A stretch of DNA of 64,000 nt from a bacterium (GCA_035549195.1 DASZRK010000002.1:231655-295654); one strand, 5' to 3'; positions 24,012 through 40,238 are shown, counted from the stretch's first letter. Program-made: numbers and translations. The notes: generated by a model from the letters alone, not told the origin.

Positions 24012-24338
24012 GGGATAAAAACTATATCATCGACCGGCCAAGCCACGCTATAGACCCATTAGGACCTGTCGCTTATTGGCTATACATTGCCACATAATTT
24101 GAAAAAAACCGAAACATAAATCGCATTAGGACCATTCATCGCTACGCCTATCGGAATTGCCGACCGGACCACATCCCCCAAAAAGTTTCCCAAACTATCC
24201 AACTCTTCGAGAGTGATCCTGTGCCGAAGTTGGTCGCATTGTCCGTCTCCGTTTCCGGCCCTTCATTGATTAATACGATTCGACCCGTGACCAAAAATCT
24301 CCACTCGGGCATTCCCATGAAATCACTTCCAATAAGCA

Positions 24339-25541
24339 TTACGGGGAATAAACTTCAATGGAATTGTTCGCAGTATCCGTAAGATAAATCCTCCCCATTC
24401 CATCGATAGCAACTTGGTTCGGGAGTGCCAGACTCCCCGAAGGATCACCCGACGCAGTTGTGTCACCCAAAAAGATCCAAGAATCATTGAATTCCCTAAG
24501 GCAAGCCCGCGTATATGTGTAGTTACCGCCCGCTATGTAAATGTTCCCAGATGGATCAATCGCCATACCGCGATAAGCCGGATCCAAACTCATCGGCACA
24601 GCCAATTCCGGAGCATATAAAAATGTTAGTGGATTGCCATTTGCATCGAATTTAGAAATTTGAGAAGGAGGGTTTGCCGATACATACACATCGTTATTTC
24701 CATCAACAGCGATTGATCCGATATTCCCCGGAAAGATCTGTGTTATATAGGTGCCGGAATGAGTGAATTTTTGGACACGACTGTTTCCGGGATCCGTGAC
24801 ATAGATCGAAGCACCTGCGGACCCATTGTTATCCAAGACAATCCCGTACGGATGTGAAAACTCGCCGGGACCCCCACCCGTAACCGGAGAACTGGATCCA
24901 ATTTGATAAATGAAATTCATGTTTTGGTCGAAAACCATGACCCTGTTTTCATTGTTGTCCACGATGAAGATATTTCCTAACTGATCAATCGCGATGCCGG
25001 CAATCCGTCCAATTTGTCCCATCTGGCTGCTCGATGCCGCATAAGAAGTAACCGGTATCCCCGCAGATGTGTAAATACCCAATGTGGTCCCAAATAGAGA
25101 TCCGATCGTAGTCCCAAGGGATTGGCCCACAAAGACATTGTTGTTTGTGGGATCGATAGCGATCGCTTCAGGAAGTGGAACCGTCCAATGGGTGATATGC
25201 GTGAGAACTGGTGTTGACGTATAGGTCGGGGTTCCGGTCCAGGTCGCAGTGGAGGTCATGGTCGGTGTGAATGAAGATGTCAAAGAACTTGTTGGCGTGA
25301 AACTATCCGTCTCCGTGAATGTAGGGGAGATGGTAAAAGTAGCTGTGGCGGTCGGGGTGTTCGTCGGGGTTTCCGATGGGGTTTGGGTGGGTGAGTCGGT
25401 CGGACTGGAAGTTGGTATGGGCGTATTCGTCCGGGTGACCGTCGGGGCGGGAGGAGATGCAGGCGGTTTGTTTTCCACGCATGACCAGGAAAGGAATAGG
25501 CCCAAGAACCCAAGAAAGAACAAATTTAAGGACTTTTTCAT
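24339..25541 (-). CDS. Secreted/lipoprotein-like NHL-repeat beta-propeller protein with N-terminal Thr/Pro linker; AT-rich, compositionally anomalous gene
   Basis: [21 protein letters not shown] signal (non-canonical lipobox), then [39 protein letters not shown]... linker. NHL repeats follow ([29 protein letters not shown]; [22 protein letters not shown]). There is no CTD. GC content is visibly lower than in the flanking genes. Confidence 0.65.
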
Positions 25542-25616
25542 AGCACCAACTTCGATAAGGATCACCCGGTCATCCAGAGCATCTTATCAAAGTGCCATGT
25601 TTATTTTGACCCAGGC

Positions 25617-26507
25617 TTACTTGGCCCGGTAGGCCGCCGCGAAACCCGACAGGAATTCCTTCAAATGGGTCGTTCCCCGGCCCAGGGTCCGGGTCGGTTC
25701 CAAACGCCCCTCATTGAAAGCTTGGTTCATCTCGATCATGAGCCCGGCCATCTGGGGCGTCATGCCCGCCCCGATCATCCCTTGTTTGGCGTCCTCATAA
25801 GGGAACTGCACATAGGGCAGGCCGGGTTTGCCGATAGCCTCCCCGATGAGCGCGGTGGCTTGGGTCATGGTCACGTCCTCCGGTCCCCCGTATTCGAGCA
25901 CTTCGGCGCCTTGGAAGTCCAAAGCGGACAATCTTTGGGCGCTCACCACCCCCAGGTCCCGGGTGGCCACCATGGGGATCTTCAGGTCCGCACGCAACGG
26001 CGTTCCCACGACCCCCATCCCCTTGAGGACGGGCAAAGCGTAGAAAAGGTTCTCCATGAAATAAGCGGCGCGCAAATGGACCACGTTCAGGCCCGCGATG
26101 GATTCCAAGTTCTTTTCCATCCGGTGGAGGTTCCCGATCGGTCCGTTGCCCTTGGGTTTGTCGGCCCCGATGGAGCTCAGGTTCACGGCGTTCTTGACGC
26201 CTGAAATCTTGACGGCGGCCGCGATGGCCTCGCCGGTGGCGATCTGATAAGCGGAGAAATCCGGCTCCCCATAGGAAGGCGGGATCAACAGGAACACCCC
26301 GTCGCTTCCCTGGAAGGCCGCGCCCAGGGCCTTGGCGTCCCCGAAGGAAGGCGAAAGCGTCTCGGCGCCCTTGGCCTTCAACCGGGAGAGCTTTTCCGGG
26401 TCCCGTCCCAGGGCCCGGACCTGATGGCCCTTCTTCAGGAGTTCTTCGGATAGGACATGGCCGATATGGCCGGTAGCGCCCATGATGGTGAAGGTCTTTT
26501 GGGACAT
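25617..26507 (-). CDS. NmrA-like NAD(P)H-binding atypical SDR family protein
   Basis: [12 protein letters not shown] Rossmann motif; overall NmrA/isoflavone-reductase-like layout; 296 aa. Confidence 0.7.
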
Positions 26508-26730
26508 ACGCCCTCCTTAGGTTCGAGTGGAAGCACTATCGATCCCCCGGAAAAGCCTTTCAAGCGGGCCTTGGATTAAACCGTTTCCCCTTAGTAACCC
26601 GCTTTCGGTTGAGGGACGGCGGGACGGCGTGCGATAATCCCCTGCGGTGTCCTTTGCCCGTTCATTGAACGGGTTCACTGCGTCCGGACGGTTTCACGTT
26701 TGATTTCGGATCTTGATCTTGGGGAAACGA

Positions 26731-29115
26731 ATGGTCCTTTCCGTTAACAAATTAAAACGTTCCAAGCTCCCCTTTCTTTGCCTGGGACTCTTGGTCCTCC
26801 CTTCCCTCGCCCGGGCCCAGGTCACCTTCAACAGCCTGGCGATCTCCAACAGCAATCCTTCTCCCGGCAGTACGGTGGGTGTGACCGTGGTCTATTGCGA
26901 AGGGACCTTCAAAACCCCGCATTTCTTCGTGGGGCTGAATCCCTCCTCCACGACCCTGCAATCCTGCCCCGCCGCCAACCAGACCCTGCTGGTCGATTCC
27001 TCCACCACCCCCAGCGGGAGCTATTCGGTCAATTCCTCCACCAACGACACCAACGACTCCGGGGGCGGTTGGACCGGGGTGGCCGTGGGCGGCACCGCCG
27101 CTTGTCCCGTCACCCAGGTCTGGGCCGTGACCATCCCGCTCACCCTGGGTGCCGGCACCTACCACTTGATCGTGGAAGAGAACGATTTCTACATCGGCTG
27201 TAACGGGACCGCCTATCCCAACGTGAACACCACCCTGACGGTGCCCTATCCCCCGCCCTCCATTAATTTGGTCAAGATCGCCGACGGCAGCACCGCCAAC
27301 CCGGGCGACCTGGTGCTCTTCCGGCTGGACTACACCTACGTGAACACCGGACCCGTCACGATCACCGATACCATCCCGGCGAACACCGCCCTGGCCGCCG
27401 CCTCGGGCGCCATCAGTCCCGGCGGCACCTTGAGCGGTTCCACGATCACTTGGGTCTTACCCTCCACCTTGGCCCCCGTCACCGGCGAGGTCTGGTTCCT
27501 CACCCAGGTCAATGCGGGCACCCCGGCCGGCACCGTGATCTCCAACACCGCCTCCGCCTCCTCCGCCAGCGCCGGTACCGTTCCTTCCAATACCGCCCAG
27601 GTCAACGTGGGAGTGGGGGGCTTCACGCTCCTGAAAAGCGAGAACGCCGCCACCCTCAACAACGGCAACACCGTGACCTATACCTTGAACTACCAGGTGA
27701 GCGGGGAAAGCCTGCAGGATTGCGACACCTTCGCCAACAACACCGTGGGCACGGCCAACGGGTCCATCCTGGGCTTCGACGGGACCGGCTACACCTACAC
27801 CAATACCGGGGGCATCGGCGGTTTCACCGTCCAACATGACGCCCAGGGCAACAGCTATGTCCAGGCCTGCGCCCAGAACACCTGCAATTCGTCGGTCACG
27901 GTCGGAAATTACCCCACCCTGCTTCGAAACGGCCCCGCCGTGAACCTTTGCAACAACTTCATGGTGGAGGGGGACATGATGATCCCGGCTTCCTCGGCCC
28001 CCGGCGCCGACGCCACCCTGGTGCTGGCCGACAACATCTCGGCCCCTGGCGTCAACGACGCCTACATGGCGGGCATGTCCCTGGACGCGGGTCCGGCGAA
28101 TTTCTATATCCAGAAGAACGTGTCCGGGACCAGCAGCGTCACCTTCCCTGCCCAGGCCAACAACGCGGCCCTGGGGCTCACCATCACCAGCGGGGTCTGG
28201 TACACGGTCAAGGTCCTGGTGACCTACTCGGGCGGTTCCCTGACCTTCCAAGGCAAGCTCTGGCCCAAGGGGTCCGCCGAACCCGCCACCTGGAGCATCA
28301 ATTGGACCGATAGCTCACCCCTGCCCTGCACGGCCATCAACGGCGGTTCCTACCGGATGGGTTGGCAGGCGGACGGCTCCGCCTCCACCGATGATTATTC
28401 CAACCTGAAGCTCTACGGACCTTCCCCGGTGGCGGACCCCACCCTTTGGGACACCCTCCCGGCCGGGCTGGTCTTCGTGGGCTCCACCCCCAACGCCCCC
28501 AGCCTTCAGGCGGGCAATTTCCTGGAATGGGACCTGGGCGGCGCCCACCCCGTCACCACCTACAACCTGACCGGGGCCGTCACCCTTTCGGCGGTCGTCA
28601 CTTGCGGCACCTTCGCCAACCAGGCCGCCATCATGGGCGGCGGCGCGGCCTCCATGGTGCTGTCGAATTCCGTGACCCTCGCCATCAACAGCGGCTGCAT
28701 CACCAGCACCCCGACCAACACCCCCACTCCCACCATCACCCCGACCCCGACGGTCACGCCCACCCCCAGCCCCACCGGGACCCCCACGAACACCCCGACC
28801 ATCACACCCACCCCCATCCCCGAGGTGGACATTTTCTACGTGTCGAAGAACGCCTTCGACCCGAAGAACGACGGACCGGTCTCCATTTATGTCGGTTACT
28901 CGAAATTCCCGGGGGATTATTCCTTGAGGATCTACAACAGTGCGGGGGAGCACATCCGGACGCTGGATTCGAAGACCGTGAACCAGCCCTTGAGCGAATC
29001 CTATGAATGGGACGGGAAGAACAAATACGGCGACGACTGCGCCAGCGGCATCTACATCCTCCTGCTACGGGAGCCCTTCGCGGTCAAGATGAAGCGGGTG
29101 CTCATCCTTCGCTGA
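26731..29115 (+). CDS. Secreted DUF11/conserved-repeat-domain beta-sandwich protein (adhesin-like) with short Thr/Pro linker and T9SS-type CTD (classical Por_Secre_tail flavour)
   Basis: Signal peptide MVLSVNKLKRSKLPFLCLGLLVLPSLARAQ with RBS ggggaaacgaATG. DUF11-like segment ANPGDLVLFRLDYTYVNTGPVTITDTIP. Linker TSTPTNTPTPTITPTPTVTPTPSPTGTP. CTD ...YEWDGKNKYGDDCASGIYILLLREPFAVKMKRVLILR. Confidence 0.7.
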   Translation: MVLSVNKLKRSKLPFLCLGLLVLPSLARAQVTFNSLAISNSNPSPGSTVGVTVVYCEGTFKTPHFFVGLNPSSTTLQSCPAANQTLLVDSSTTPSGSYSVNSSTNDTNDSGGGWTGVAVGGTAACPVTQVWAVTIPLTLGAGTYHLIVEENDFYIGCNGTAYPNVNTTLTVPYPPPSINLVKIADGSTANPGDLVLFRLDYTYVNTGPVTITDTIPANTALAAASGAISPGGTLSGSTITWVLPSTLAPVTGEVWFLTQVNAGTPAGTVISNTASASSASAGTVPSNTAQVNVGVGGFTLLKSENAATLNNGNTVTYTLNYQVSGESLQDCDTFANNTVGTANGSILGFDGTGYTYTNTGGIGGFTVQHDAQGNSYVQACAQNTCNSSVTVGNYPTLLRNGPAVNLCNNFMVEGDMMIPASSAPGADATLVLADNISAPGVNDAYMAGMSLDAGPANFYIQKNVSGTSSVTFPAQANNAALGLTITSGVWYTVKVLVTYSGGSLTFQGKLWPKGSAEPATWSINWTDSSPLPCTAINGGSYRMGWQADGSASTDDYSNLKLYGPSPVADPTLWDTLPAGLVFVGSTPNAPSLQAGNFLEWDLGGAHPVTTYNLTGAVTLSAVVTCGTFANQAAIMGGGAASMVLSNSVTLAINSGCITSTPTNTPTPTITPTPTVTPTPSPTGTPTNTPTITPTPIPEVDIFYVSKNAFDPKNDGPVSIYVGYSKFPGDYSLRIYNSAGEHIRTLDSKTVNQPLSESYEWDGKNKYGDDCASGIYILLLREPFAVKMKRVLILR

Positions 29116-29127
29116 CCCCGCTCCCGG

Positions 29128-32100
29128 TCACTTCTTACCCTTCTTTTTCTTCGCCTTCCCTCTTTTAGGGGAGGCGGTCCCCTTTTTTCCCGTCCGATGG
29201 GCCGTCTTTTTCCTTCCCGCATGGGCCGCGACCGCCTCATGGGAATGGAGCCAATCGGCCACCACGACCTCCAACCGCGAACCCTTGGCCCAGCGCAGCG
29301 CCCCCTGCACCTCGTCGGCCGGGAACAAGGCCTCGGTCTCCCGGTAGAAATCCTTCGCCCCGTCCTTGGTGGCCTGCCGGCAGGCGGGATGGTGCAAGGT
29401 CATCAGCAGGAAGGCCAGGGCCTGGGTGTCCTTGCCCTTCGCCTTCTCATAGCGGGCCATCACCGTCAGGGCCTCGGCCAGGACCGGGACCAAGCCCGAC
29501 CGCAAGGCGGTCTCCAGCACACGCCTCAGGATGGGCAAGCCCTTGTCCGGCGCCCCTTCGAGACAATAGAGGCGGGCCAGGTGGAGCCCGGCGTTGTCCA
29601 GACCGGTGGGATCCTCCAACCGCGTGAAAAGGGCCAGGGCCTTCTCCATTTCACCCCGGGCCTGGGGACGCCGGCCTTGGGACAGATGGATGAGCCCTTG
29701 ATGGTAGTGATGCCAGGCCTTGGAGGTGTCCACGGCCTTTTCGCCCCCCGCCTTCTCGAAAGCATTCCGGAAGAGGGCCTCGGCCTCGGCGGTTTGCCCC
29801 TCGTCCAGGCGGATATTGCCGGTCCAATCCAGGACCCAGGATTCACCCAGGTGGTCCTGGGCCTCCCGGTAATGCTGGAGGGATTCCTCCAGGAAGCGGT
29901 CCGCGCCCAGGTAATCCCCCAGCGACCAGGCCACCTGGGCCAGGAGGCAAAGGCACCAGCCCACGGCCCGGGTGTCGCCCAGGTCCCGGAAGATGGAGAG
30001 GCCCTCCAGGACCATCTGCCGGGCCCCGGCGAAATCGCCCAGGAAGAGCGACTCCTGTCCCAGGCTGGTGAAGGACCAGGCGATGCCCCGGCGCTCCCCG
30101 ATCTCCAGGTAGGTGGTCAGGCCGTGCTGGTAGTTCCGTCTGGCCTCCTCGAAGCGGCCCCGGTCGTGCGCCAGGTCGCCCATCAGGTTGTGGGCATAGG
30201 CCTTGGCCCGGTGGTCCTTGTCGGCCAGCGCGTAGGACAAGGCCTTCTGGAGATGGGCCGTGGCCTTGTCCGGCCGCTTCAAGCGGTTCTCGATGTGCCC
30301 CAGGTTGTTCAGGTTCCAGACCATCCCCCAGCGGTCCCTGGCCTTTTGGAAGGACGCCAGGGCCTTTTCATAATGCCGTTTGGCCCCCGCCATGTCCCCG
30401 TGCCATTCCAATGCCACCCCATAGCCCGCGTGGCAGAAACCCGCTTCGCGGTGGAAGCCCGCGGGGGGCAGGAGGTCCAGGCATCCGGCGAAGGTCTTTC
30501 GGGCTTTTTCCCCCTGGCCCACCGCGTTCTGGAAGAAGGCCGCCATGGACCGGATCCAGGCCAGGAGCGCCAGGACCTTGCGGGGGGCCTTGGCGGGGTC
30601 CGGGAATTTTTCCTCGAGTTTTTCCGCGGCACCCTGGAAGGATTCCACAGCCTCCCGGAAAAGTCCCTTCACCTCGAAATAGTGGAAAAGCCCCTGGACG
30701 AAGCCTTCCATCTCCTCCTCCAGCCCCAGGGCCACCACCCGACGCCAGGCTTCCCGGATGTTCCCGATCTCCAGGGTCAGGTCCTCCAAGGCCCGGCGTT
30801 GGCCGGCTCCATAGAGTTCCTCGGCCTTCTTGGCGGTGAACCGGGAGAAATACTGGGCGTGGGCCGCGAAGACCCGGTCCTTCTCCGTCGGGTCGTCGAA
30901 AAGCTTTTCCTTGGCGTAATATTTGAGCAGCTCATGGATCTCGAACCGTCCATTGGGCAGCACCCGCAGCAGGGTCTTGTGGGTGAGATAAAGAAGGAGG
31001 GTCTCGGTGGCCCCGCCGATCTTACGGGCGGCCTGCTCGCTGAAACTGCCCTTGAAGACCGAGATGGAGCGCAGGACCTTCTTCTGGGGCTCGGTCAGCA
31101 GGATCCAGGAATACTCGAAGACCGCCCGGAGCGACCGGTGCCGGGCGGGCAAATGAGGCATGGTGGTGGCCAGGAAGTCCCGGCTGGTCTCGATCTTGGA
31201 GGCGATCTCGTCCAAGGGGAGCGTCGCCACCCAGGTGGCGGAAAGTTCCAGCCCCAAGGGCATGCCCTCCAAAAGGGCGCAGATGCGGGTCACCGCCGGG
31301 CGGTCGGCCGGTTCCAGCTTGAAATGGGGCACCAGCCGCTTGGCGCTGCGCAGGAAGAGCTGGACCGCCGGCGAGCCCTCGAAGGTGGTCCCATGGTCGT
31401 CGCCCGGGTATCGCAGGCCCTTGACGTCCAGCACCTTCTCGCCCTCCAGCTTCAGATTTTCGCGGGAGGTGACCATGACCTTCACCCGGGGGGCGGCCTT
31501 CAGGATGTCCTCCACCAGGTCGGTCCCCTCGATGAGGTGTTCGAAGTTGTCCATGACCAGCAGCATCTGCTTGTCCTTCAGGTGGTTCAGGAGCTGGGAC
31601 TTGGGATCCTCCGCCCCGTAGAAGAGGAACTTGATGGTGGAAGCGATGGCCCCCACGATCAGGTCGTCGGAAAGGAGCGGTGCCAGGTGGACGACGAAGA
31701 CCCCGTCCTCGAAATCCTCGATCATTTCCGCCGCCGTCTGCAGGGCCAAGCGGGTCTTCCCGAAACCGCCCGGACCCAGCAGGGTCACCAGGCGGACCGC
31801 CGGGTCCCGAAGGGAGGTCATGATCTCCCCCATGGCCTGCTCCCGCCCGAAGAAGGGGGAGGCCTGGGGGTTGAAATTCTGGGGATGGTTCTTGAGGGAC
31901 CGGGGCGCGGCCAGCCCCGTCCCTTCCAGGTCGGGATGCAGGAGGGCGTAGAGGTTGCCGGGCTCGCTCAGGTCCTTGAGGAAATGGACGCCCATGTCCT
32001 GCAGGCGGGCGCCGGGTGGCAGGGGGACGAAATGGACGGCGGGGACCGTGAAGAGGATCATGCCCGGCGGGGCGGCCTCCAGCACCTTTTGGGCGTGGAT

Positions 32101-32418
32101 CATGTCGGGGCCCACGCGTTCCTGCCCCACCTCGTCCACTTCGCCCGAGTGGATCGCCATCTTCAGGCGGGCCTTGCCGAACCGGTCCCATTCGAAGGAA
32201 CCGAACTCCTTCATCAGGACCAGGGCCGCCTTACAGGGATCCCCCTTGTCGAAGAGGGACAGCATGCCGCGGGGAGTGCGCTTCATCCAGTGGACGCCCT
32301 GGGCGAAAAGGAGTTCCTCGATCCGGAAATATTGGGAGGCACGGACATGGTCCACCGCGAGGGCGTCCTCCTCGCGGTCCAAGGCCGGATGGTCGATCTC
32401 GATGAAGAGGAAGATCAC
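29128..32418 (-). CDS. STAND-type signal-transduction NTPase: N-terminal class-III nucleotidyl-cyclase-like (probably degenerate) domain + P-loop AAA/NB-ARC-like ATPase + C-terminal TPR repeats + Lys-rich tail
   Basis: Cyclase-like region: VIFLFIEIDHPAL (D-to-E change at the first metal-binding position), LFDKGDP, RLKMAIHSGEV, GPDMIHAQKVLEAAPPGMILFT. Walker A LLGPGGFGKTRLA and Walker B LLVMDNFEH. More than 10 TPR-like repeats. Ends ...KRGKAKKKKGKK with no HTH detected. GTG start directly after an in-frame TAA. Confidence 0.7.
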   Translation of the reverse strand: MIFLFIEIDHPALDREEDALAVDHVRASQYFRIEELLFAQGVHWMKRTPRGMLSLFDKGDPCKAALVLMKEFGSFEWDRFGKARLKMAIHSGEVDEVGQERVGPDMIHAQKVLEAAPPGMILFTVPAVHFVPLPPGARLQDMGVHFLKDLSEPGNLYALLHPDLEGTGLAAPRSLKNHPQNFNPQASPFFGREQAMGEIMTSLRDPAVRLVTLLGPGGFGKTRLALQTAAEMIEDFEDGVFVVHLAPLLSDDLIVGAIASTIKFLFYGAEDPKSQLLNHLKDKQMLLVMDNFEHLIEGTDLVEDILKAAPRVKVMVTSRENLKLEGEKVLDVKGLRYPGDDHGTTFEGSPAVQLFLRSAKRLVPHFKLEPADRPAVTRICALLEGMPLGLELSATWVATLPLDEIASKIETSRDFLATTMPHLPARHRSLRAVFEYSWILLTEPQKKVLRSISVFKGSFSEQAARKIGGATETLLLYLTHKTLLRVLPNGRFEIHELLKYYAKEKLFDDPTEKDRVFAAHAQYFSRFTAKKAEELYGAGQRRALEDLTLEIGNIREAWRRVVALGLEEEMEGFVQGLFHYFEVKGLFREAVESFQGAAEKLEEKFPDPAKAPRKVLALLAWIRSMAAFFQNAVGQGEKARKTFAGCLDLLPPAGFHREAGFCHAGYGVALEWHGDMAGAKRHYEKALASFQKARDRWGMVWNLNNLGHIENRLKRPDKATAHLQKALSYALADKDHRAKAYAHNLMGDLAHDRGRFEEARRNYQHGLTTYLEIGERRGIAWSFTSLGQESLFLGDFAGARQMVLEGLSIFRDLGDTRAVGWCLCLLAQVAWSLGDYLGADRFLEESLQHYREAQDHLGESWVLDWTGNIRLDEGQTAEAEALFRNAFEKAGGEKAVDTSKAWHHYHQGLIHLSQGRRPQARGEMEKALALFTRLEDPTGLDNAGLHLARLYCLEGAPDKGLPILRRVLETALRSGLVPVLAEALTVMARYEKAKGKDTQALAFLLMTLHHPACRQATKDGAKDFYRETEALFPADEVQGALRWAKGSRLEVVVADWLHSHEAVAAHAGRKKTAHRTGKKGTASPKRGKAKKKKGKK

Positions 32419-32502
32419 GGGAGGCCCTTTGGGGCAAGGATGGACCGGACGTTCTTATTATAGACCTCTCCCCCATCCCCGGCTCACCGCCGAATTGCGG
32501 CC

Positions 32503-33891
32503 GTGACCCCCGCCCTTTTGATAGAATCGCCAAGAACGCGGCGCGATCCATCCTTCCCTCTCGAGGTCCTCTTGTCCCGCTTCCGGCGCTCCATCCCCCT
32601 CCTGGCCCTCTTTGCCTTGATCTTTTCTTTCCGGCTTTTCTTCGGCCTCTGGCAGGCCAAGTGGGGGGAACCGGACTATATCCAGACCTACCTCATTGGC
32701 CTGAAATACTACTCGACCGGTGAATGGCCCTATTTCGGGCCCGACGTGAACGGGGAGGAGAACCCGGCCTTCCAAAGCCAGATCCCCGGTCCGCTCGAGG
32801 GCCTCTTGATCGGCCTGCCCTTCCATCTGTTGCCCATCCCGGAAGCGCCCTTCGTCCTGCTGAACCTCCTCAACAGCGCCGGCCTCCTGCTTCTGGCCGC
32901 CTATTTCCACAGGAGGCTCCCTTCCTTATCCATGGCTTGGCTGGCCCTTTGGCTGGCTTCCCTCCCCTGGACCCTCCATGAGGGGACCAACCTGATCAAC
33001 CCCGCCTTTGTGCTCTTCCCTGGCGCGATCTTCTTCGTCGGCTTCATGGAAGCGACCCCCTTTTTCTCCCTCCACTGGCTTTCCAAACCATGGGCCAATG
33101 CGTTCATGGGGTTCGGGCTCTTCACCGCCATGCAGTTCCATTTCTCCTATGTTTACCTGGGCCCCCTGGCCCTTTTCGCGATCCTGGCACAAATGGGGCG
33201 CTTTCGCGACTTCACCGTCCTTCGTTGGTTCGTCCTGGGGGCCTTGCCGCCCCTCGCCCTGGTGCTTCCCACTTATATAAGGTACGGTTTGGGGACCAAT
33301 AACGTGGCCGGCGGTTTCGCCGCCTCCTTCAACTGGGACAATGTTCGGGCCTTCGGGACCATCCTGGCCCGGTTCCTGTCCCTGGCCTGCTATGAGATGC
33401 CCCGGTTCCTGGGACTGAACAGAGCGGCCCGCGTGGACTTCCTCACGGGTCATCCACTCCTGCTCGTTCCCGGCGCCTGCCTCTGGGTGGCAGGAGTGGT
33501 CCAGCCTTTCCTCTTGTTGGGTTGCTGGTTCCTCAAGGACGAGGGGCGTCCCCAATGGAGGGCCGCGAAATGGCTGATCCTGGCGGTGCTCTTGATGGTG
33601 GAGGTCAGTTTCTGGTTCACCATCAAGAAGCCCTTTTCCCATATCTACTTCATCCTGCTTCCCTTCGTGGCCTTTTACGCCGCCCAGTGTTTTTCCTTCG
33701 TGGCGGACCGAAAGCCCTGGCGGATCCTGGCCGGGACCCTGGTGGTCTTCAGCCTCTTTTTCCATCTGCTCTATGCCCCGGTCTTCGAGCCCCAATATTC
33801 CATCTACCCCAAAAGGGAACAGGTGGCCCAAGCCATCGACCATAAGAACTATCATTTGATGGGCGAACGCCGTCCAGGGAGCCTCTATTGA
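32503..33891 (+). CDS. Polytopic integral membrane protein, paralog 1 of 3 (uncharacterised; GT-C-like topology suspected)
   Basis: About 12 predicted TM segments. Conserved motifs QTYLIGLKYYSTGEWPYFGPD, QIPGPLEGLLIGLPFHLLPIPEAPF, MQFHFSYVY, MVEVSFWFTIKKPFSHIYFILLPF, and an invariant C-terminal tail KNYHLMGERRPGSLY. Confidence 0.6.
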   Translation: MTPALLIESPRTRRDPSFPLEVLLSRFRRSIPLLALFALIFSFRLFFGLWQAKWGEPDYIQTYLIGLKYYSTGEWPYFGPDVNGEENPAFQSQIPGPLEGLLIGLPFHLLPIPEAPFVLLNLLNSAGLLLLAAYFHRRLPSLSMAWLALWLASLPWTLHEGTNLINPAFVLFPGAIFFVGFMEATPFFSLHWLSKPWANAFMGFGLFTAMQFHFSYVYLGPLALFAILAQMGRFRDFTVLRWFVLGALPPLALVLPTYIRYGLGTNNVAGGFAASFNWDNVRAFGTILARFLSLACYEMPRFLGLNRAARVDFLTGHPLLLVPGACLWVAGVVQPFLLLGCWFLKDEGRPQWRAAKWLILAVLLMVEVSFWFTIKKPFSHIYFILLPFVAFYAAQCFSFVADRKPWRILAGTLVVFSLFFHLLYAPVFEPQYSIYPKREQVAQAIDHKNYHLMGERRPGSLY

Positions 33892-33941
33892 GGCGATTTC
33901 TAATTCTCAATTCTTAATTTTGAATTCGAGGATTTGATTCG
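33892..33941 (+). promoter_or_regulatory. AT-rich intergenic element containing TTCTTAATTTTGAAT (copy 1)
   Basis: Low-GC island in an otherwise 65% GC context, about 25 nt upstream of the paralog 2 ATG. The same 15-mer occurs at 35306..35320, and a related element at 59528..59575. Confidence 0.4.
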
Positions 33942-33948
33942 TGGTTAA

Positions 33949-35286
33949 ATGGTTTTAAATAAAAATCAAGGATTGTCTTTGTCCTCGAACCAGAAAAATT
34001 TTCTCCTGTTCCTGAGCCTTTTCGTCCTGCGCACGGGATTCGGGCTCCTACAGGCGCGGTGGTTCGAGGTGGACCAGCTCCAGACCTATTTGATCGGTTT
34101 GAAGAGCTACACGACCGGGACCTGGCCCTGGTTCGGGCCCGACGTGAACGGGATCGAGAACGGTTTTCACAGCCAGATCCCCGGCGCCCTGGAAGGCCTG
34201 CTGGTGGGCGTGCCTTTCCACCTATTGCCCATCCCCGAAGCGCCCTTCCTCTTCCTGAACCTCATGTCCACCGCCGCCGTCCTTCTCCTGGCCGCCTATA
34301 TCCACCGGCGGCTCCCGGCCCTTTCCTACCCCTGGCTCTGCCTCTGGATCGCCATCGCTCCCTGGAGCCTGCACGAGGCCACGACCGTCCTGAACCCTTC
34401 CTATGTCTTCCTTCCCTCCACCCTCTTCTTCATCGGTTTCCTGGAGGCGACCCCCACCTTCTCATCGGACCAGCTTCCCGCCCCCTGGGCCAACGCGGCC
34501 ATGGGTCTTTCGATCTTTTGGATCATGCAGTTCCACTTTTCCTATGTTTATCTGCTCCCTCTCGTGGCCTTCTCCTTTTTTGACCAGTGGCGCAAGGAAA
34601 GGGGTGCGGCCGGGTTGGGTTTTTTCTCTTTGGGGGCCCTGCCGCCCTTGGGGCTGGTCATCCCCACTTATCTCAAGTTCGGCCTGGGGGCCACCAATGT
34701 CGCCTCGGGTTTCGCCGTCCCCTTCAACTGGTCCAACGTCGGGGAGTTCACCACCATCCTGGCCCGGTTCCTGTCCCTGGTCTCCTTCGAAATGCCCCGT
34801 TTCATCGGACAGACCAATCACGAAAGATACGATTTCCTTCTGGGCCACCCCTTACTGCTGGTTCCCGGTGCCGTCCTATGGATCGCGGGGATCCTCCAAG
34901 CCGTCGCCCTTTTGGTGCTTTGGTTCAAAAAAGATCATCCGGCGCCCGGATGGGCAAAGATCAAATGGCTCCTCCTCATGCTGTGGCTGATGGTGGAGGT
35001 CAGTTTCTGGTTCACGGTCAAACTACCCATCGCCCACATCTATTTCGTGCTCTTCCCCTTTATCATGTTCTACTCCTGTTATGTCTGGGCCCTCTTCGCG
35101 GGGGACGGCCGCTGGAGGACGACCGCCAAGGTCTTCCTCGCCCTGGGGCTTTTCTTCCAGGTGGTCTACGCCCTGCAATTGGCCCCCCAGTGCTCCATCT
35201 ATCCCCAACGGGAGAAGGTGGCCAAGGCCCTCCAGGAAAAGGACTACCGCCTGATGGGCGAACGCCGGGCCGGAAGCCTCTACTAA
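33949..35286 (+). CDS. Polytopic integral membrane protein, paralog 2 of 3
   Basis: About 60% identical to paralog 1, with the same motifs (QTYLIGLKSYTTGTWPWFGPD; tail KDYRLMGERRAGSLY). The 3' spacer with an AT-rich element was duplicated along with the gene. Confidence 0.6.
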   Translation: MVLNKNQGLSLSSNQKNFLLFLSLFVLRTGFGLLQARWFEVDQLQTYLIGLKSYTTGTWPWFGPDVNGIENGFHSQIPGALEGLLVGVPFHLLPIPEAPFLFLNLMSTAAVLLLAAYIHRRLPALSYPWLCLWIAIAPWSLHEATTVLNPSYVFLPSTLFFIGFLEATPTFSSDQLPAPWANAAMGLSIFWIMQFHFSYVYLLPLVAFSFFDQWRKERGAAGLGFFSLGALPPLGLVIPTYLKFGLGATNVASGFAVPFNWSNVGEFTTILARFLSLVSFEMPRFIGQTNHERYDFLLGHPLLLVPGAVLWIAGILQAVALLVLWFKKDHPAPGWAKIKWLLLMLWLMVEVSFWFTVKLPIAHIYFVLFPFIMFYSCYVWALFAGDGRWRTTAKVFLALGLFFQVVYALQLAPQCSIYPQREKVAKALQEKDYRLMGERRAGSLY

Positions 35287-35326
35287 GGCGATTTTTAATT
35301 ATCAGTTCTTAATTTTGAATCGACGG
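35287..35326 (+). promoter_or_regulatory. AT-rich intergenic element containing TTCTTAATTTTGAAT (copy 2)
   Basis: Identical core 15-mer, 60-90 nt upstream of the paralog 3 ATG. Confidence 0.4.
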
Positions 35327-35381
35327 ATCTTTCGACGGATCAAAACGTTCGGAATTAAAAATCCAAAATTCGGGGTTCAAA

Positions 35382-36695
35382 TTGTCCGATCAGCTCAAGT
35401 TCATCTTATTGTTCCTGGCCCTGTTCGCTTTCAGGACCCTTTTCGGGCTCTGCCACGCCTTCTTCTCACCCGACGAGCTCCAGACCTATCTCATCGGCTT
35501 GAAATGGTATTGCGAAGGCGGCTGGCCCTATTTCGGGCCGGACCTGATCGTCACCGAGACGGGTTTCTATTCCCAGATCCCCGGACCCCTGGAGGCGCTC
35601 CTCATCGGCGGGCCCCTTCATCTGCTCCCCATCCCGGAAGCCCCCTTTCTTTTCCTGAACCTGCTGACCACCGGCATCCTGGCGGTCTGGGCTTGGTACC
35701 TTTCCGAACGGCTTCCCCAGGTACCCTCTTGGTTCCTCTTCGTTTGGATCGCCCTCCTGCCTTGGAACCTGCAGGAGTCCGCCAACCCCATCAACCCTTC
35801 TTATCTTTTGATCGGAAGCGGACTTTTCTTCCTGGGATTCCTTGAGGCCTTTCCCGCTCTTTCGATGGGCCTCTTTCCCTCTTGGCTCAGTTTTGCCCTC
35901 ATGGGCTTCGGGATCTTCTGGGACATGCAGTTCCACCAATCCTGGGTGCTCCTACCCCCCTTCCTCCTCGTGGCCTGGGTCGCCCGGTTCCTCAAAAAGA
36001 AAAAGGGGTTGGGTGGGGACCTGGCGGCTTCGGCGGCCGGTGCCTTGCCCTGCGTCCTCCTGCTGGTCCCCACTTACCTGAAGTTCGGTTGGGGCCAGGG
36101 CACAAGCGGCTTCCACCTGGCCAGTGCCTTCAATCTCACGAACTTCCTCTCTTTCTTCACCGTTCTGGCGCGCTTCCTTTCCATGCCCAGCCAGGAGACC
36201 CTGCGGTTCCTCCTGGAGCCCGGCGCCGTCCATCACCTGGATTTCTTCAAGACCTCCCCGTGGCTTTGGCCCTTCGGCCTCTTCCTCATCCTCATGGGCT
36301 GGCTGCAGCCCTTGAGCCTCCTCGTTCTGTCCTGGCTCCATCGGGACAAGGACACCCGGACCCGCACCATGATCGGGACAACCCTTTTCGCGCTCCTTCT
36401 TTTTTGGGCAAGCTTTTGGTTCACTTCAAAAGACCCCATGGCCCATATCCTCTATATCCTCATGCCCCTGCTCATGGCCTTTTCCCTCACCCTCTGGGCC
36501 GGCCTCGCCCGTCGGAAGTGGTGGCGGGTCCTGGCCGTCGCCTGCCTGGGGGTGAACATCCTCTTCCAGGCCGGATGGATGGTGCACATGGGCAAGACCC
36601 AATCCCTCTATGTGGACCGGGAGAAAGTGGTGAAGGCCATCGGGACGAAGGACTATCATCTCTTGGGCGAACGCAGGCCGGGCAGTCACAACTAG
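35382..36695 (+). CDS. Polytopic integral membrane protein, paralog 3 of 3
   Basis: Same family (QTYLIGLKWYCEGGWPYFGPD; tail KDYHLLGERRPGSHN); more divergent in the middle. Confidence 0.6.
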   Translation: MSDQLKFILLFLALFAFRTLFGLCHAFFSPDELQTYLIGLKWYCEGGWPYFGPDLIVTETGFYSQIPGPLEALLIGGPLHLLPIPEAPFLFLNLLTTGILAVWAWYLSERLPQVPSWFLFVWIALLPWNLQESANPINPSYLLIGSGLFFLGFLEAFPALSMGLFPSWLSFALMGFGIFWDMQFHQSWVLLPPFLLVAWVARFLKKKKGLGGDLAASAAGALPCVLLLVPTYLKFGWGQGTSGFHLASAFNLTNFLSFFTVLARFLSMPSQETLRFLLEPGAVHHLDFFKTSPWLWPFGLFLILMGWLQPLSLLVLSWLHRDKDTRTRTMIGTTLFALLLFWASFWFTSKDPMAHILYILMPLLMAFSLTLWAGLARRKWWRVLAVACLGVNILFQAGWMVHMGKTQSLYVDREKVVKAIGTKDYHLLGERRPGSHN

Positions 36696-36709: not shown

Positions 36710-38290
36710 ATGATCAAGAAACTCATGGTCCTTTGGATGCTGGTCCCGGCGGCTTTCGCCGCCGACGTCCACTTCCTCATCATGCCCGATGAAGTGGTGG
36801 GACCGATCAGCCCCTACATCTACGGCATCAACGACAAGGACCCCCAGGACACCCACACCACCGTCCGCCGCCTGGGCGGCAACCGCATGACGGGCTACAA
36901 CTGGGAGAACAACGCCTCCAACGCGGGCAGCGACTGGCACCAGACAAGCGACGACTGGATGTGCGCCCAGAACCTGGGGTTCAAGGATTGCGACAAGCCC
37001 GGCTCCATGGCCGCCCAGTTCGTGGAGCAGGGCCAGAAGTTCGGCATGGACACCCTCATGACCATCCCCATGGCGGGCTATGTGGCGGCGGACAAGTCGG
37101 GCGAGGTCAGCGATACCGAGACCGCCCCCAGCAAGCGCTGGAAGAAGGTCGAGTTCCATAAGAAGGGCGCCTATACCCTGGACCCCAACCCCGAGGACGG
37201 CGTGGTCTATGAGGACGAGTTCGTCGATTTCCTGACCACCAAGTTCAAGAAGGCCGATGCGGGCGGGGTGCGTTTCTACGACCTGGACAACGAACCTGGC
37301 ATCTGGGCCTCCACCCATCCCCGGCTCCACCCCAAGAAGGTCTCCTACTGGGAGATGCGCAACAAGACCGAGGATGCCGCCGAGAACATCCTGCGGGTGG
37401 ACCCTTCCGCCGTCATCCTGGGAGCGGTCTGCTACGGATGGAACGAGTTCATCAGCCTCCAGGACGCCCCCGAGAGCAAGGACGAGACCATGAAGAAACA
37501 GTTCCCCACCTACCTGGATTTCTACCTGGACGCCATCCACCGGATGCAGGTGGCCTATCACAAGACCCTGGTCCATGGCCTGGATTTGCACTGGTATCCG
37601 GAAGCCCAGGGCGGCGGCAAGCGGATCACCGAGAACGACATTTCGCCCGATTCCATCGAGGCCCGGCTCCAGGCACCCCGCAGCCTCTGGGACCCGGGTT
37701 ACGTGGAGAAAAGCTGGATCACCCAATGGTCCACGGGGGGCAAGGCTATTCAGCTCATCCCCTGGGTGAAAGAGAAGATCGAGAAATACGCACCCGGCAC
37801 CAAGCTCTGTTTCAGTGAATACGATTACGGGGCGGGCGATAACGTATCGGGCGGGCTGGCCCAGGCGGACGTACTGGGCATCTTCGCCAAATACGGGGTC
37901 TACCTGGCCTGCTATTGGGGGGACCTGAAGAGCTACAACAAGGCGGCCTTCCAGCTCTACCGCAATTACGACGGGAAGGACGGCACTTTCGGGGACACCT
38001 TCGTGTCCTCCGCCACCGAGGACGTGGCCTTGAGCTCCTGCTACGCGTCCACCGACCCCAAGGCCCCGGGCACCCTCTGGGTGGTGGCCTTGAACAAGAG
38101 CCAGAAGGATCCCCTCCATGGGAAATTCCGGTTCCAGGGCAAGGAGACTTACGGCTCCTATGAGGCCTATTCCTTCGGGAAGGACTCACCCGAGATCAAG
38201 TTGGTGAAGCAGGGCCACGTGGACAAGGACCACTTCGACTATTCCTTGCCGCCTTTGTCGGCCACGATCTTCGTGTGCCATTCGAATTGA
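36710..38290 (+). CDS. Secreted glycoside hydrolase family 44 (endoglucanase/xyloglucanase), no linker or CTD
   Basis: RBS gggaggtcggaATG. Signal peptide MIKKLMVLWMLVPAAFAADV. GH44-type motifs RRLGGNRMTGYNWENNASNAGSDW and FYDLDNEPGIWASTHPRLHP (clan GH-A acid/base NEP). The track ORF 35882..38290 is an upstream open-frame extension overlapping paralog 3 and is not real. Confidence 0.7.
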   Translation: MIKKLMVLWMLVPAAFAADVHFLIMPDEVVGPISPYIYGINDKDPQDTHTTVRRLGGNRMTGYNWENNASNAGSDWHQTSDDWMCAQNLGFKDCDKPGSMAAQFVEQGQKFGMDTLMTIPMAGYVAADKSGEVSDTETAPSKRWKKVEFHKKGAYTLDPNPEDGVVYEDEFVDFLTTKFKKADAGGVRFYDLDNEPGIWASTHPRLHPKKVSYWEMRNKTEDAAENILRVDPSAVILGAVCYGWNEFISLQDAPESKDETMKKQFPTYLDFYLDAIHRMQVAYHKTLVHGLDLHWYPEAQGGGKRITENDISPDSIEARLQAPRSLWDPGYVEKSWITQWSTGGKAIQLIPWVKEKIEKYAPGTKLCFSEYDYGAGDNVSGGLAQADVLGIFAKYGVYLACYWGDLKSYNKAAFQLYRNYDGKDGTFGDTFVSSATEDVALSSCYASTDPKAPGTLWVVALNKSQKDPLHGKFRFQGKETYGSYEAYSFGKDSPEIKLVKQGHVDKDHFDYSLPPLSATIFVCHSN

Positions 38291-38403
38291 GATTTCTTGG
38301 ATCTCCCCTTCTCCCTTAAGGGGAGAAGGGCGGGATGAGGGTGCCTGGGAGAACACAAGTCGCCTCTCCTCCCACCCTTTCGACGAGGGTCCTTTCAATA
38401 GAA

Positions 38404-40097: not shown

Positions 40098-40238
40098 GGG
40101 ACCTCTTGGGAGTGGAAGGCGCTCTATTATCCAAAAACGGGCCCGGGCCGCCGGGAAAATCCGCTTTGCCGGGAACGGAACTTAGGACTAGGATAAGTCC
40201 GTTCCTGGAGCCTTTCTCATTACCTCGCGGGAGTTCCC

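Follow-up and report, generated by a model that had tools for sequence, protein, structure and literature searches.

The minus-strand gene at 29128..32418 of the window, as we term the whole 64,000-nucleotide stretch of bacterial DNA analyzed here, encodes a large cytoplasmic signaling ATPase of the STAND type. The protein is a new variant of an already known protein type: it represents the catalytically dead, tail-bearing branch of a family in which a class III cyclase homology domain (CHD), an NB-ARC NTPase and tetratricopeptide repeats (TPRs) follow one another with no HTH. Its cyclase head is almost certainly a pseudoenzyme, as judged from sequence and model. Divergent from the gene lie GT-C-fold membrane proteins and a GH44 glycoside hydrolase, an arrangement that recurs in uncultured soil bacteria, and this genomic adjacency makes a functional link to them probable. 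Our best overall reading, in which confidence and doubt are evenly balanced, is that the protein, a TPR adaptor or regulator gated by nucleotide, serves an envelope-glycan module and that its cyclase head has become no more than a structural part.

The open reading frame starts with GTG, specifies 1096 amino acids according to the ORF list and translation, and ends in the stop codon at 29128-29130 (-). NCBI holds an identical 1096-aa protein (P0001), which derives from a 600-kb contig of a MAG and is named there only “tetratricopeptide repeat protein”; 40 or more full-length orthologues with identities of 39-56% further support the gene. A plus-strand ORF at 29197-32463 (1088 aa) was rejected as its antisense shadow. 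The protein begins directly at strand 1 of the CHD, and both a signal peptide and a TM segment are absent. The CHD (residues 1-165; 31924..32418, -) is joined by a conserved linker, “SL..YPQN..PQ.SPFF” (residues 166-190; 31849..31923, -; alignments A1 and A2), to the NTPase module (residues 191-520, boundaries approximate; 30859..31848, -). There follow a MalT-like TPR superhelix with a conserved helical cap (residues 521-1056; 29251..30858, -) and a polycationic tail (residues 1057-1096; 29131..29250, -). In the linker, which has low pLDDT in the model and is also present in canonical cyclase relatives, N181, Q185 and F189 are invariant. All strings quoted in the initial annotation are present, and its layout of a degenerate cyclase head, NB-ARC-type NTPase, TPR arm and poly-Lys tail without an HTH is borne out.

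The head has the fold of a class III cyclase. When aligned with canonical CHD relatives that bear PF00211, the N-terminal domain is matched by hhalign at a probability of 100% (E 3.7e-58), and the domains are collinear over residues 2-190. The family profile of the head also matches the Ma1120 adenylyl cyclase (E 9.4e-11). On the query alone, Pfam detects no Guanylate_cyc domain (PF00211) even at E<=1, so that profiles and a model were required to recognize the cyclase homology; PF00211 is also missing from the precomputed domain lists of P0002-P0042. The AF2 model of the head has a pLDDT of 88.3, and all 50 of the PDB matches listed for it by Foldseek are class III cyclases, with TM values of 0.70/0.80 to 4wp9. 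Failure to model as a cyclase fold, which the initial annotation would have taken as refutation, was thus not seen.

That annotation had also remarked on the replacement of the first metal-binding aspartate in FIEIDHPAL. This motif occupies residues 5-13, with the change from D to E at residue 7. Indeed, all catalytic positions of the query are altered except the substrate lysine, K46; the head carries E7, D9, H10-P11, K46, R47, R50, E100, I107, H108 and K111. We compared 38 degenerate orthologues with 59 catalytically canonical relatives. The metal aspartates, E7 and R50 in the query, are kept in 1/38 (D7) and 0/38 (D50) of the degenerate set versus 59/59 each of the canonical one. The substrate-specifying D100 (E100 in the query) is kept in 10/38 versus 59/59, the transition-state N107 (I107) in 11/38 versus 56/59, and the transition-state R111 (K111) in 1/38 versus 59/59; K46 is found in 58/59 canonical relatives. 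Because both metal-binding aspartates, the adenine-specifying aspartate and the transition-state asparagine and arginine are replaced, the output is predicted to be cAMP no longer. Further, the GST phosphate-binding turn is swapped for H-P-x, with P11 in 35/38 degenerate proteins, and two residues have become nearly invariant among degenerate heads (R47, 36/38; H108, 37/38). Mean pairwise identity reaches 0.51 in the CHD, compared with 0.44 in the TPR arm. Such conservation of sequence indicates that the head is not decaying and that its fold is kept under constraint. E7 and D9 leave two acidic side chains on strand 1 of the degenerate head, and these may retain some binding of metal.

The NTPase module is the most conserved region of the protein (mean pairwise identity 0.62). 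Pfam NB-ARC (PF00931) matches residues 193-321 with 25.3 bits against a cut-off of 23.5, and the matches to nSTAND1 and AAA_16 are weaker. The strings of Walker A (GPGGFGKTRLA, residues 215-225; 31744-31776, -) and Walker B (LLVMDNFEH, residues 286-294; 31537-31563, -) are present, as are the motifs VTSRE (31459-31473, -), GMPLGLEL (31243-31266, -) and IHELL (30925-30939, -). By comparison with the NB-ARC literature, rather than by structural alignment, the last three would correspond to RNBS-B, GLPL and MHD. The cores GPGGFGKT and LLVMD of the two Walker motifs are invariant and, across 35 orthologues, so are G217, G218, G220, K221, D290, T317, R319, G385-L388 and H495; T317, R319, G385-L388 and H495 may represent the sensor-1 Arg, the GxP and the MHD-like His of an ADP-bound switch. 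The switch itself is very probably intact and, given that its motifs are, gating of the protein by ADP/ATP is still to be expected.

In the TPR arm, Pfam finds eight TPR_12 stretches and a match to TPR_MalT (PF17874) at residues 718-975 (55.6 bits; cut-off 45). More than 10 TPRs had been proposed initially; since each TPR_12 model covers about two repeats, this figure is plausible, as an estimate and not a count of individual repeats. The arm is closed by the conserved helical cap, “HHPACRQATKD...ALRWAKGSRLEVVVADW” (alignment A5). The 40-residue tail that follows, recognized by its composition and charge, ends in KRGKAKKKKGKK (residues 1085-1096). Its net charge is +14, acidic residues are lacking beyond E1061, and long hydrophobic runs are absent. 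Among orthologues the tail is 18-49 residues long and consists of K (30%) and R (17%), then S, A, P and G; its sequence is not conserved (identity 0.27), but its charge is. A net charge of at least +8 in the last 35 residues characterizes 43/44 degenerate-CHD proteins versus 3/76 others, and no other such tail occurs among the approximately 45 ORFs of the window. The absence of a DNA-binding domain, asserted in the initial annotation, withstood sensitive C-terminal searches for a canonical LuxR or BTAD HTH. A search of the entire protein at E<=1 gave no match to HTH, LuxR, BTAD or Trans_reg_C, and a profile of the last 150 residues (20 sequences, alignment A5) yields only TPR matches, and no HTH, from the PDB and Pfam at E<=10. 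The LuxR-type HTH PF00196 in particular is found neither in the whole protein nor with the A5 profile at E<=10.

An architecture without an HTH is not rare: dozens of HTH-less CHD-NB-ARC-TPR proteins are present among the 120 best database matches, some of them carrying the JGI label “predicted ATPase/class 3 adenylate cyclase”. These proteins, from uncultured Chloroflexota, WOR-3, Acetothermia, Fraserbacteria and FCPU426 (e.g., P0046, P0051-P0053 and P0056), are collinear homologues with 33-39% identity over 75-95% of the length. They share with the query the succession from cyclase domain through conserved linker and NB-ARC to TPRs, the same C-terminal cap and the lack of an HTH. Unlike the query, they keep every catalytic residue, pass Pfam PF00211, are some 100 residues shorter, and have neither a polycationic tail nor GT-C/GH44 neighbors. 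In our best overall reading, the protein descended from active adenylate-cyclase/NB-ARC/TPR proteins, its branch being found mainly in MAGs labeled candidate division FCPU426.

The initial annotation called the protein stand-alone and considered it a possible regulator of the flanking secretome genes. Neither description fits the comparative data: the secreted proteases and glycoside hydrolases downstream are not conserved neighbors, synteny being lost at the 3′ side of the gene, and the conserved partner lies on the other side, where a divergent array of GT-C membrane proteins leads to GH44. The first GT-C-fold paralogue (32503..33891, +), recognized by its paralogy to the next two genes and its conservation in about 20 loci, has no Pfam or NCBIfam match. 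Its true start may be later; a database protein from the same 600-kb contig (P0144) has 439 aa. Paralogue 2 (33949..35286, +) is the one that was modeled, and paralogue 3 (35382..36695, +), with 44% identity to it (alignment A4), is present in related arrays. The genes at 32503-36695 encode proteins with the multi-pass fold of GT-C enzymes, in which an acidic residue of the first external loop is conserved. The GH44 enzyme (36710..38290, +; Pfam Glyco_hydro_44, E 1e-54), which has an N-terminal signal-like sequence (MIKKLMVLWMLVPAAFA), is the last gene of the conserved triad, and almost every related locus has it after the GT-C array. Direct inspection of the short divergent intergenic region shared by the STAND and first GT-C genes reveals a TATAAT box (32457..32462, -) 39 nt upstream of the GTG start, and TATAAT or TATAGT stands at a similar distance in most orthologous loci. 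A consensus promoter scan returned no site in this region.

The order of a STAND gene divergent from one to four GT-C genes and then GH44 recurs in about 20 genome loci, with the STAND proteins only 39-56% identical. A reverse search from the GT-C profile found, upstream of the arrays, either a full STAND protein (12 metagenome loci) or a stand-alone TPR-plus-tail protein of 441-450 aa. The latter, which occupies this place in a different lineage, can be aligned gap-free with STAND residues 649-1059 at 35% identity (E 3e-78); its C-terminus reads KTKAKKPVKTVKKAKPKTKRKK. At the P0393 locus, a TPR-plus-tail gene is divergent from three genes for proteins of 400-500 aa without a Pfam match, followed by GH44 and GH3. 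Another relative of 350 aa (P0424) aligns to STAND residues 744-1059 and neighbors a GT87 glycosyltransferase and GH44; this GT87 protein, GT87 being itself a GT-C family, has no sequence relation to the GT-C family of the window. The roughly 10 TPRs, the cap and the disordered tail, whether borne by a STAND protein or free-standing at 350-450 aa, recur divergent to GT-C and then GH44, and it is this C-terminal half that is tied to a function. Other short TPR relatives occur in clusters for envelope machines: after exbB-exbD-tonB in the window’s own genome, and in EPS clusters. The syntenic block of FCPU426 continues into housekeeping genes (two SDRs, LysE and PEP carboxylase), and part of the GT-C/GH44 conservation is therefore simple shared ancestry. 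Paralogous degenerate STAND genes of the same genomes (L009, L011 and L012) are without GT-C neighbors, and no TPR partner lies within 4 kb of one of the GT-C arrays (L101).

How might such a protein work? By analogy with MalT, APAF-1 and Avs, an ATP/ADP-gated STAND switch would change conformation or oligomerize. Assembly could be driven by a signal that the TPR arm binds or the NTPase relays, and in it the dead cyclase domains, pairing head-to-tail in this fold, would serve as a dimerization clamp. The clustered basic tails might anchor the complex on a polyanionic surface, and the TPRs would then touch partner proteins; the module so controlled would comprise lipid-linked-sugar glycosyltransferases and a trimming glucanase. 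We slightly favor, as a tentative choice, a tail that acts at the membrane (on the inner-membrane face, beside the GT-C proteins) rather than on DNA. Against a membrane site, tails made up purely of K/R/P/S more commonly bind nucleic acids and many STAND relatives are transcription factors; the divergent layout with back-to-back promoter-like boxes likewise fits a transcription regulator. In its most general form, which we consider doubtful, our proposal is that TPRs, helical cap and polycationic tail make up a hitherto unrecognized subunit that controls, from the cytoplasm, envelope glycosylation machines of the GT-C type (lipid-linked-sugar) working with GH44. In FCPU426, this unit would have been put under a STAND ATPase, whose former cyclase head would now serve assembly or ligand binding without catalysis. 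If so, the protein would be the first STAND NTPase to govern a pathway of envelope glycosylation, and would offer a clean example from nature of a bacterial pseudo-cyclase retained by selection.

Another possibility, which we rate as unlikely, is that the protein regulates transcription without an HTH. At the divergent promoter, the activated STAND oligomer would bring its polycationic tails together on the DNA, switching the GT-C/GH44 genes on or off in the manner of MalT or AfsR, with a disordered basic tail replacing the folded DNA-binding domain. DNA is bound by disordered tails rich in Lys/Arg/Pro/Ser in HU/HupB and Hc1 and in Ku and TopoI of mycobacteria. Presence of the tail goes along with the loss of cAMP output, and the gene is divergent from its conserved partners with only some 85-155 bp between them and with conserved TATAAT-like boxes. 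Further, the closest characterized STAND clades are transcription factors, in keeping with the MalT-like TPR match and a weak AfsR match, and the Mclx proteins combine a CHD and NB-ARC with LuxR (PMC4452763, PMC3466318). However, a sequence-specific DNA-binding domain was not found at profile sensitivity, and the tail, its sequence being unconserved, cannot confer promoter specificity. Inspected by eye only, the upstream regions of 20 loci reveal no common operator-like repeat. The TPR-plus-tail relatives of 350-450 aa have even less with which to bind DNA, and some are in unusual positions for a transcription factor: one lies after exbB-exbD-tonB on the same strand, and two are on the same strand as the flanking EPS genes.

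Other rivals to a nucleotide-gated adaptor concern the head. It is improbable, in our estimation, that within one cell the dead head dimerizes with the live one of a canonical paralogue, as in C1/C2 or sGC alpha/beta, and so modulates, most likely inhibits, cAMP synthesis within what would still be cAMP signaling. Class III cyclase domains are established to act as dimers with shared active sites, and genomes with a degenerate copy also encode canonical CHD-STAND-TPR paralogues (L036 with L006, L045 with L004, L047 with L010) and further, partly degenerate ones (L048 and L053). Yet both halves of the degenerate active site (the metal Asp pair; N/R/D) are defective, and therefore the heterodimer would have no complete site. 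Nor does this arrangement explain the basic tail or the conserved GT-C/GH44 neighborhood, in which free-standing TPR-plus-tail proteins fill the role without a CHD. That the head remains active, whether as a nucleotidyl cyclase or as some other metal-dependent enzyme, by means of the non-canonical residues E7/D9/H10, R47, H108 and K111 is more doubtful still. Its replacements are well conserved (E7 30/38, D9 32/38, H10 28/38 and K111 29/38, besides R47 and H108), and the domain matches the remainder of the protein in its degree of conservation. Against this, the second metal Asp position varies (T, R, S, K, E and others), as do the positions of N107 and D100; owing to P11 the phosphate-binding turn lacks a backbone NH, the deeper-branching members P0035-P0041 lose E7/D9/H10 as well, and Pfam finds no cyclase match. 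Least credible is an Avs/NLR-like anti-phage sensor with a cyclase-like head as a new effector type, an idea of the initial annotation. The layout of N-terminal effector, STAND NTPase and C-terminal TPRs is common to Avs proteins, and the wider NB-ARC-TPR family exchanges its N-terminal output domains (CHD, SARP, GGDEF, kinase). But the head cannot be a cyclase effector, its catalytic residues being gone, and PADLOC returned only a generic TPR match and two insignificant ones. The neighbors are glycosyltransferases, glycoside hydrolases, SDRs and PEP carboxylase, with no defense gene nearby, and the position, with one conserved non-defense partner, is stable and syntenic in about 20 genomes rather than in variable islands.

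For the adaptor that we prefer, several known systems provide partial parallels. Degenerate GGDEF/EAL domains such as that of PelD, in which the fold of a second-messenger synthase persists without catalysis, serve as receptors or scaffolds in the control of envelope polysaccharides. The head resembles them in having a related fold that lost catalysis and is kept under selection inside a signaling protein; they bind c-di-GMP or GTP at defined sites, whereas the turn of the query is disrupted by proline and no ligand can be predicted. With MalT, a STAND protein that activates the maltose regulon in dependence on ATP and maltotriose, the query shares a STAND NTPase followed by a MalT-like TPR superhelix and a genomic link to carbohydrate-active genes, but MalT lacks a cyclase domain at its N-terminus and bears a LuxR HTH at its C-terminus. 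On the query, NF003420, the MalT model of NCBIfam, scores only 15.8 bits against a cut-off of 537, with only the TPR_MalT region matching. Of AfsR/SARP, Trans_reg_C and BTAD are absent, and the NF053617 match (67 bits; cut-off 1430) is confined to the TPR region. Avs and bacterial NLR-like antiviral proteins have the same succession of N-terminal output, STAND NTPase and C-terminal repeat sensor; the query differs from them in its lack of a PADLOC match as an Avs, of a defense-island context and of an active effector. The initial comparison with CHD-ATPase-TPR-LuxR proteins holds: the Mclx proteins Rv0386, Rv1358 and Rv2488c have an N-terminal class III CHD, then an AAA/NB-ARC STAND-type ATPase, and, unlike the query, a LuxR HTH at the end (PMC4452763, PMC3466318). 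Rv0386 is an active cyclase according to papers cited in PMC3466318, whereas the cyclase of the query is dead. Finally, GT-C-fold glycosyltransferases are also paired with TPR modules in TMTC1-4 and other GT-C enzymes, where the TPRs are fused to the enzyme, face the lumen and bind acceptor proteins (PMC7801869). The TPR protein described here is not joined to the enzyme, lacks a signal peptide and includes an ATPase; thus, it must act from the cytoplasmic side.

Uncultured bacteria commonly encode cyclase-STAND-TPR proteins, but no member lacking an HTH has a known role. The three-module, HTH-less architecture is already abundant in the databases, and the layout itself is thus not new. What is new is a whole branch in which a conserved dead cyclase is coupled to a polycationic tail, and a recurrent triad of a STAND/TPR-tail protein, GT-C enzymes and GH44, together with a GT-C family that has gone unannotated. 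Because the loss of all cyclase chemistry coincides with the gain of the tail and a fixed genomic partner, there is a defined place in which to search for the switch's output. The degenerate branch (relatives whose cyclase-homology domain, or CHD, has lost its catalytic residues) is a handle on the HTH-less family.

The branch member in the window is encoded at 29128-32418. The initial annotation had rightly placed a gene there; the ORF list and translation assign it to the minus strand, with a GTG start and 1096 codons. Every string quoted in that annotation is present in the translation: FIEIDHPAL at residues 5-13, the Walker strings GPGGFGKTRLA (215-225) and LLVMDNFEH (286-294), and the C-terminal KRGKAKKKKGKK (1085-1096). 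A plus-strand ORF of 1088 aa (29197-32463) spans the whole gene in antisense and was rejected; its low-complexity translation is rich in G, P, R, Q and L, and it is an antisense shadow, a stop-free antisense frame being expected in a GC-rich gene. An NCBI protein of 1096 aa (P0001), on a 600-kb MAG contig, is identical to the target and is named only “tetratricopeptide repeat protein”, which conceals a three-module signalling ATPase. Pfam places NB-ARC above the cut-off at residues 193-321, followed by eight TPR_12 matches and a MalT-like TPR region; with the target alone, neither a cyclase nor an HTH is matched at E≤1, and a Pfam scan of all 44 family members yielded noise only. NCBIfam gave sub-threshold TPR-region matches only. 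The suggestion of a defence sensor found no support: no defence island surrounds the gene, and PADLOC returned for the target one generic TPR match and two insignificant ones, with no defence match. Neither “adenylate cyclase” nor “defence protein” suits the target as a name.

Since single-sequence searches were negative, profiles and a structure model were needed to recognize the cyclase homology of the head. The nearest 40-odd database proteins (39-56% identity over the full length, about 1085-1140 aa) likewise have no Pfam cyclase match. A second tier of relatives (33-39% identity, about 930-1010 aa) carries PF00211, NB-ARC and TPR, and some are labelled “predicted ATPase/class 3 adenylate cyclase” by JGI. 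Residues 1-190 of the target are collinear in alignment with this tier's cyclase domains, and comparison of the two as profiles gave a probability of 100% (E 3.7e-58). Against the PDB, the subfamily profile matched the Ma1120 adenylyl cyclase at E 9.4e-11; phmmer with the whole target reached the same protein at E 0.57 only, so that significance comes only with the family profile. The AF2 model of the head (pLDDT 88.3, pTM 0.84) has the strand/helix alternation of a cyclase, and all 50 of the 50 PDB matches listed by Foldseek are class III cyclases. Model and profiles thus agree on a class III cyclase fold, as had been suspected from the sequence, and the replacement of the first metal-binding Asp was also correctly seen, position 7 being Glu in the target.

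The fold is retained, and its catalytic residues are not. All 59 canonical relatives (those that keep these residues) have both metal-binding Asp residues (D7 and D50), the substrate Asp (D100) and the transition-state Arg (R111), whereas among 38 degenerate proteins these are kept in 1, 0, 10 and 1, respectively; the target has E, R, E and K in their place. The substrate Lys (K46) is found in 58 of 59 canonical and 26 of 38 degenerate proteins, the target included, and the transition-state Asn (N107; I in the target) in 56 of 59 and 11 of 38. Further, the Gly-Ser-Thr turn behind the first Asp, whose main-chain atoms hold the triphosphate in class III enzymes, has become His-Pro-x in the degenerate CHD. 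With this complement of residues, cAMP synthesis by the canonical mechanism is impossible for the degenerate head. It is a conserved pseudoenzyme and not a decaying one, because mean pairwise identity among orthologues is higher in the CHD (0.51) than in the TPR arm (0.44), and because the degenerate CHD has new near-invariant residues (P11, R47 and H108). Literature searches found no described pseudo-cyclase STAND protein, nor a GH44/GT-C/TPR system.

When GTDB representative genomes were scanned with the alignment of the subfamily, its members came mostly from MAGs labelled candidate division FCPU426, the phylum to which best hits would also assign the window. FCPU426 genomes have several CHD-STAND-TPR paralogues, some fully canonical (“FSDIEGST...TGDG”; loci L036, L045 and L047) and others part-degenerate in a different way (“...YGAEGN”, “LSNIEDSA...TVDDQV”; L048 and L053, of the FCPU426 MAG “clean3”). 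Catalysis by the cyclase head seems to have been lost more than once within FCPU426.

The NTPase is the best-conserved region (mean pairwise identity 0.62), and the P-loop, the Walker B Asp, the TSR and GMPL motifs and the His of “IHELL” do not vary among 35 orthologues. Judged by these residues, the NTPase motifs are intact and would fit a working ADP/ATP switch; we infer that TSR, GMPL and “IHELL” map onto RNBS-B/GLPL/MHD. Behind the TPR arm lies a conserved helical cap (consensus “HPTCRQQTKDR...F..E.EGA.QWAK..RIEDVAA.WL”), and then the tail, which cannot be aligned in sequence but keeps its composition (K 30%, R 17%, then S, A, P and G) over lengths of 18-49 residues; its net charge in the target is +14. 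With a profile built from the 150 C-terminal residues, only TPR proteins were matched in the PDB and Pfam at E≤10, with no hidden C-terminal HTH, in keeping with the initial annotation.

This tail is the only polycationic one among about 45 ORFs of the window, and it tracks the dead cyclase head. Of 44 degenerate-CHD proteins, 43 have a tail net charge of at least +8, the single exception being a truncated record; among the others, 3 of 76 do. It is net charge, not the K+R count, that separates the degenerate from the canonical group. By K+R count, six “canonical” relatives also seemed to have basic tails; by eye these are mostly K-/E-rich helical ends from AT-rich genomes, and one of the six, P0117, does have a truly polycationic tail but belongs itself with the degenerate-CHD proteins.

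Divergent from the STAND gene, on its upstream side, lie three tandem paralogous genes (32503-33891, 33949-35286 and 35382-36695); their products are multi-pass membrane proteins, each about 440 aa long, and none has a Pfam match even at E≤1. Their 375 homologues are all “hypothetical” and without Pfam domains, a PDB sequence search with the family found no match, and only 546 representatives occur among 1.84 billion clustered proteins; the family is covered by no sequence-family library. Given the invariant acidic residues D32, D55 and E60 in or near the first loop, these proteins are very probably lipid-linked-sugar glycosyltransferases (GT-C) active on the outer face of the cytoplasmic membrane. 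A 636-aa membrane protein divergent from paralogous STAND genes (L011/L012) was considered as a relative and has no detectable relation to the GT-C family.

The genes beyond the array encode GH44, a FecR-like secreted protein, LysE, PEP carboxylase and, from the opposite strand, two short-chain dehydrogenases (SDRs). Two plus-strand ORFs (38335-39279 and 39243-40196) with tblastn matches in many loci were set aside as conserved genes because they are antisense-like translations; the real genes there are the SDRs (minus strand, 38404-39462 and 39249-40097). With the SDRs recognized, synteny reaches housekeeping genes, and adjacency within FCPU426 therefore weighs less.

The order of a STAND gene divergent from one to four membrane proteins and GH44 is retained in about 20 loci of the GTDB scan at a STAND identity of only 39-56%; the genes 3' of the STAND gene differ between loci. 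Loci of canonical cyclases have no GT-C/GH44 neighbours. As gene order in FCPU426 may reflect inheritance alone, we made the reciprocal search, in which metagenome contigs were searched with the GT-C profile and the upstream genes inspected. Single-copy GT-C members (about 40-46% identical to the query; nearly all of L111-L159) have no STAND gene nearby and, save for L111, which adjoins one, no GH44. Where tandem arrays are followed by GH44, a full pseudo-cyclase STAND gene is divergently upstream in 12 loci. In a lineage of lower GC, represented by three contigs (L098, L105 and L108), that place is taken by a free-standing protein of 441-450 aa that aligns without gaps to target residues 649-1059 (35% identity, E 3e-78) and ends in “...KTKAKKPVKTVKKAKPKTKRKK”; two versions share 75% identity and are undisrupted, which argues that this protein is maintained. 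One array (L101) has neither a STAND nor a TPR+tail partner within 4 kb. The more distant TPR+tail member P0393 (442 aa) is likewise divergent from three genes of 400-500 aa without Pfam match, GH44 and GH3. P0424 (350 aa) matches target residues 744-1059 (E 8e-46) and is divergent from an adjoining GT87 protein, with GH44 a few kb further. GT87 is a GT-C family; this neighbour has no sequence relation to the GT-C family of the window, so it was rejected as an orthologue and is read as an analogous partner. Thus, the TPR-cap-tail module is found with a GT-C enzyme and GH44 in three architectures, and this half of the protein is the recurring unit. Inherited gene order is much harder to sustain as the explanation.

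We propose that the target would be a nucleotide-gated adaptor or regulator of an envelope-glycan module (GT-C and GH44). As the cyclase fold dimerizes head-to-tail, the dead cyclase domains could serve as a pairing clamp, and the clustered basic tails would bind a polyanionic surface. We slightly favour the inner-membrane face beside the GT-C proteins as the site of action, since the partners are membrane machines and short relatives share a strand with adjoining envelope-machine genes. One such relative, P0449 (347 aa, TPR-cap with a short Lys-rich end; L160 8001-9044, GCA_964638935.1), belongs by its locus-tag prefix VHE12_ to the window's own genome and sits directly behind exbB-exbD-tonB and ahead of a DUF2225-TPR gene; two others of about 350 aa are within EPS clusters.

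The tail might instead meet DNA, making the target an HTH-less regulator of the divergent operon, a serious rival that we nonetheless consider rather unlikely. Tails of such composition usually bind nucleic acids, and related STAND clades are transcription factors, e.g. MalT and Mclx (PMC4452763, PMC3466318). The divergent layout would also suit a regulator, as would the conserved TATAAT boxes: in the intergenic region (32419-32570), one was seen by eye 39 nt upstream of the STAND start, and a TATAAT/TATAGT box recurs upstream of the STAND gene in most orthologous loci (L001-L025), by eye at a distance of about 40-100 nt. Scanning for consensus promoters gave no site within the intergenic region of the window, and inspection by eye found no operator-like repeat common to the upstream regions. 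Nothing in the protein, however, confers DNA sequence specificity, which also inclines us to the membrane face. It is possible, too, that the dead head is a heterodimer partner of the canonical paralogues that occur in the same genomes, but this would leave the basic tail and the GT-C/GH44 neighbourhood unexplained. About 50 nt upstream of the TATAAT box, several loci have a second motif, “(A/T)TTAACAGAAGCCC”, possibly the GT-C gene promoter on the other strand.

The tandem GT-C arrays, regularly followed by GH44, suggest that a poorly known soil/peat phylum, whose relatives include cellulose degraders, has an undescribed pathway for surface glycans or protein glycosylation. Should the TPR-tail module turn out to be a subunit that controls GT-C glycosylation, the finding would be of greater interest.

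Downstream of the STAND gene are an 800-aa secreted protein (26713-29115, plus strand), an NmrA-like protein, an NHL propeller, two sedolisin-type proteases, and GH8, GH5 and GH8-malectin enzymes. The large secreted proteins (1501-24011, minus strand; 26713-29115, plus strand) share the C-terminal motif “...ASGLYYVVV...GK.VGK(I/L)L(V/I)LR”. Three C-termini were tested against TIGR04183 (T9SS type A sorting domain) and resemble it, the sedolisin at 24.5 bits (cut-off 23) and the others at 21.6 and 13.6; the remaining large ones are similar by eye. At least the 800-aa protein has a long Pro/Thr-rich linker of a kind that is often O-glycosylated, for which the GT-C array could be a candidate enzyme. 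The NHL-propeller and NmrA-like genes lie in a stretch (24001-26000) with a GC of 0.51 vs. 0.58-0.66 elsewhere in the window, and may be a recent acquisition. Over the GT-C genes (32001-36000), GC is slightly lower and the AT skew is -0.20 to -0.28, as expected from the T-rich Phe/Leu codons of plus-strand membrane proteins. In a Candidatus Firestonebacteria MAG (L079 1911-9292), a single-copy GT-C gene adjoins genes for a PfkB-family kinase, a cytidylyltransferase-like protein, and CTP_transf_3-family (KdsB-type) and DAHP_synth_1-family (KdsA-type) proteins; we read these as genes for the heptose/Kdo LPS core, a hint that the acceptor in this lineage may be LPS-related.
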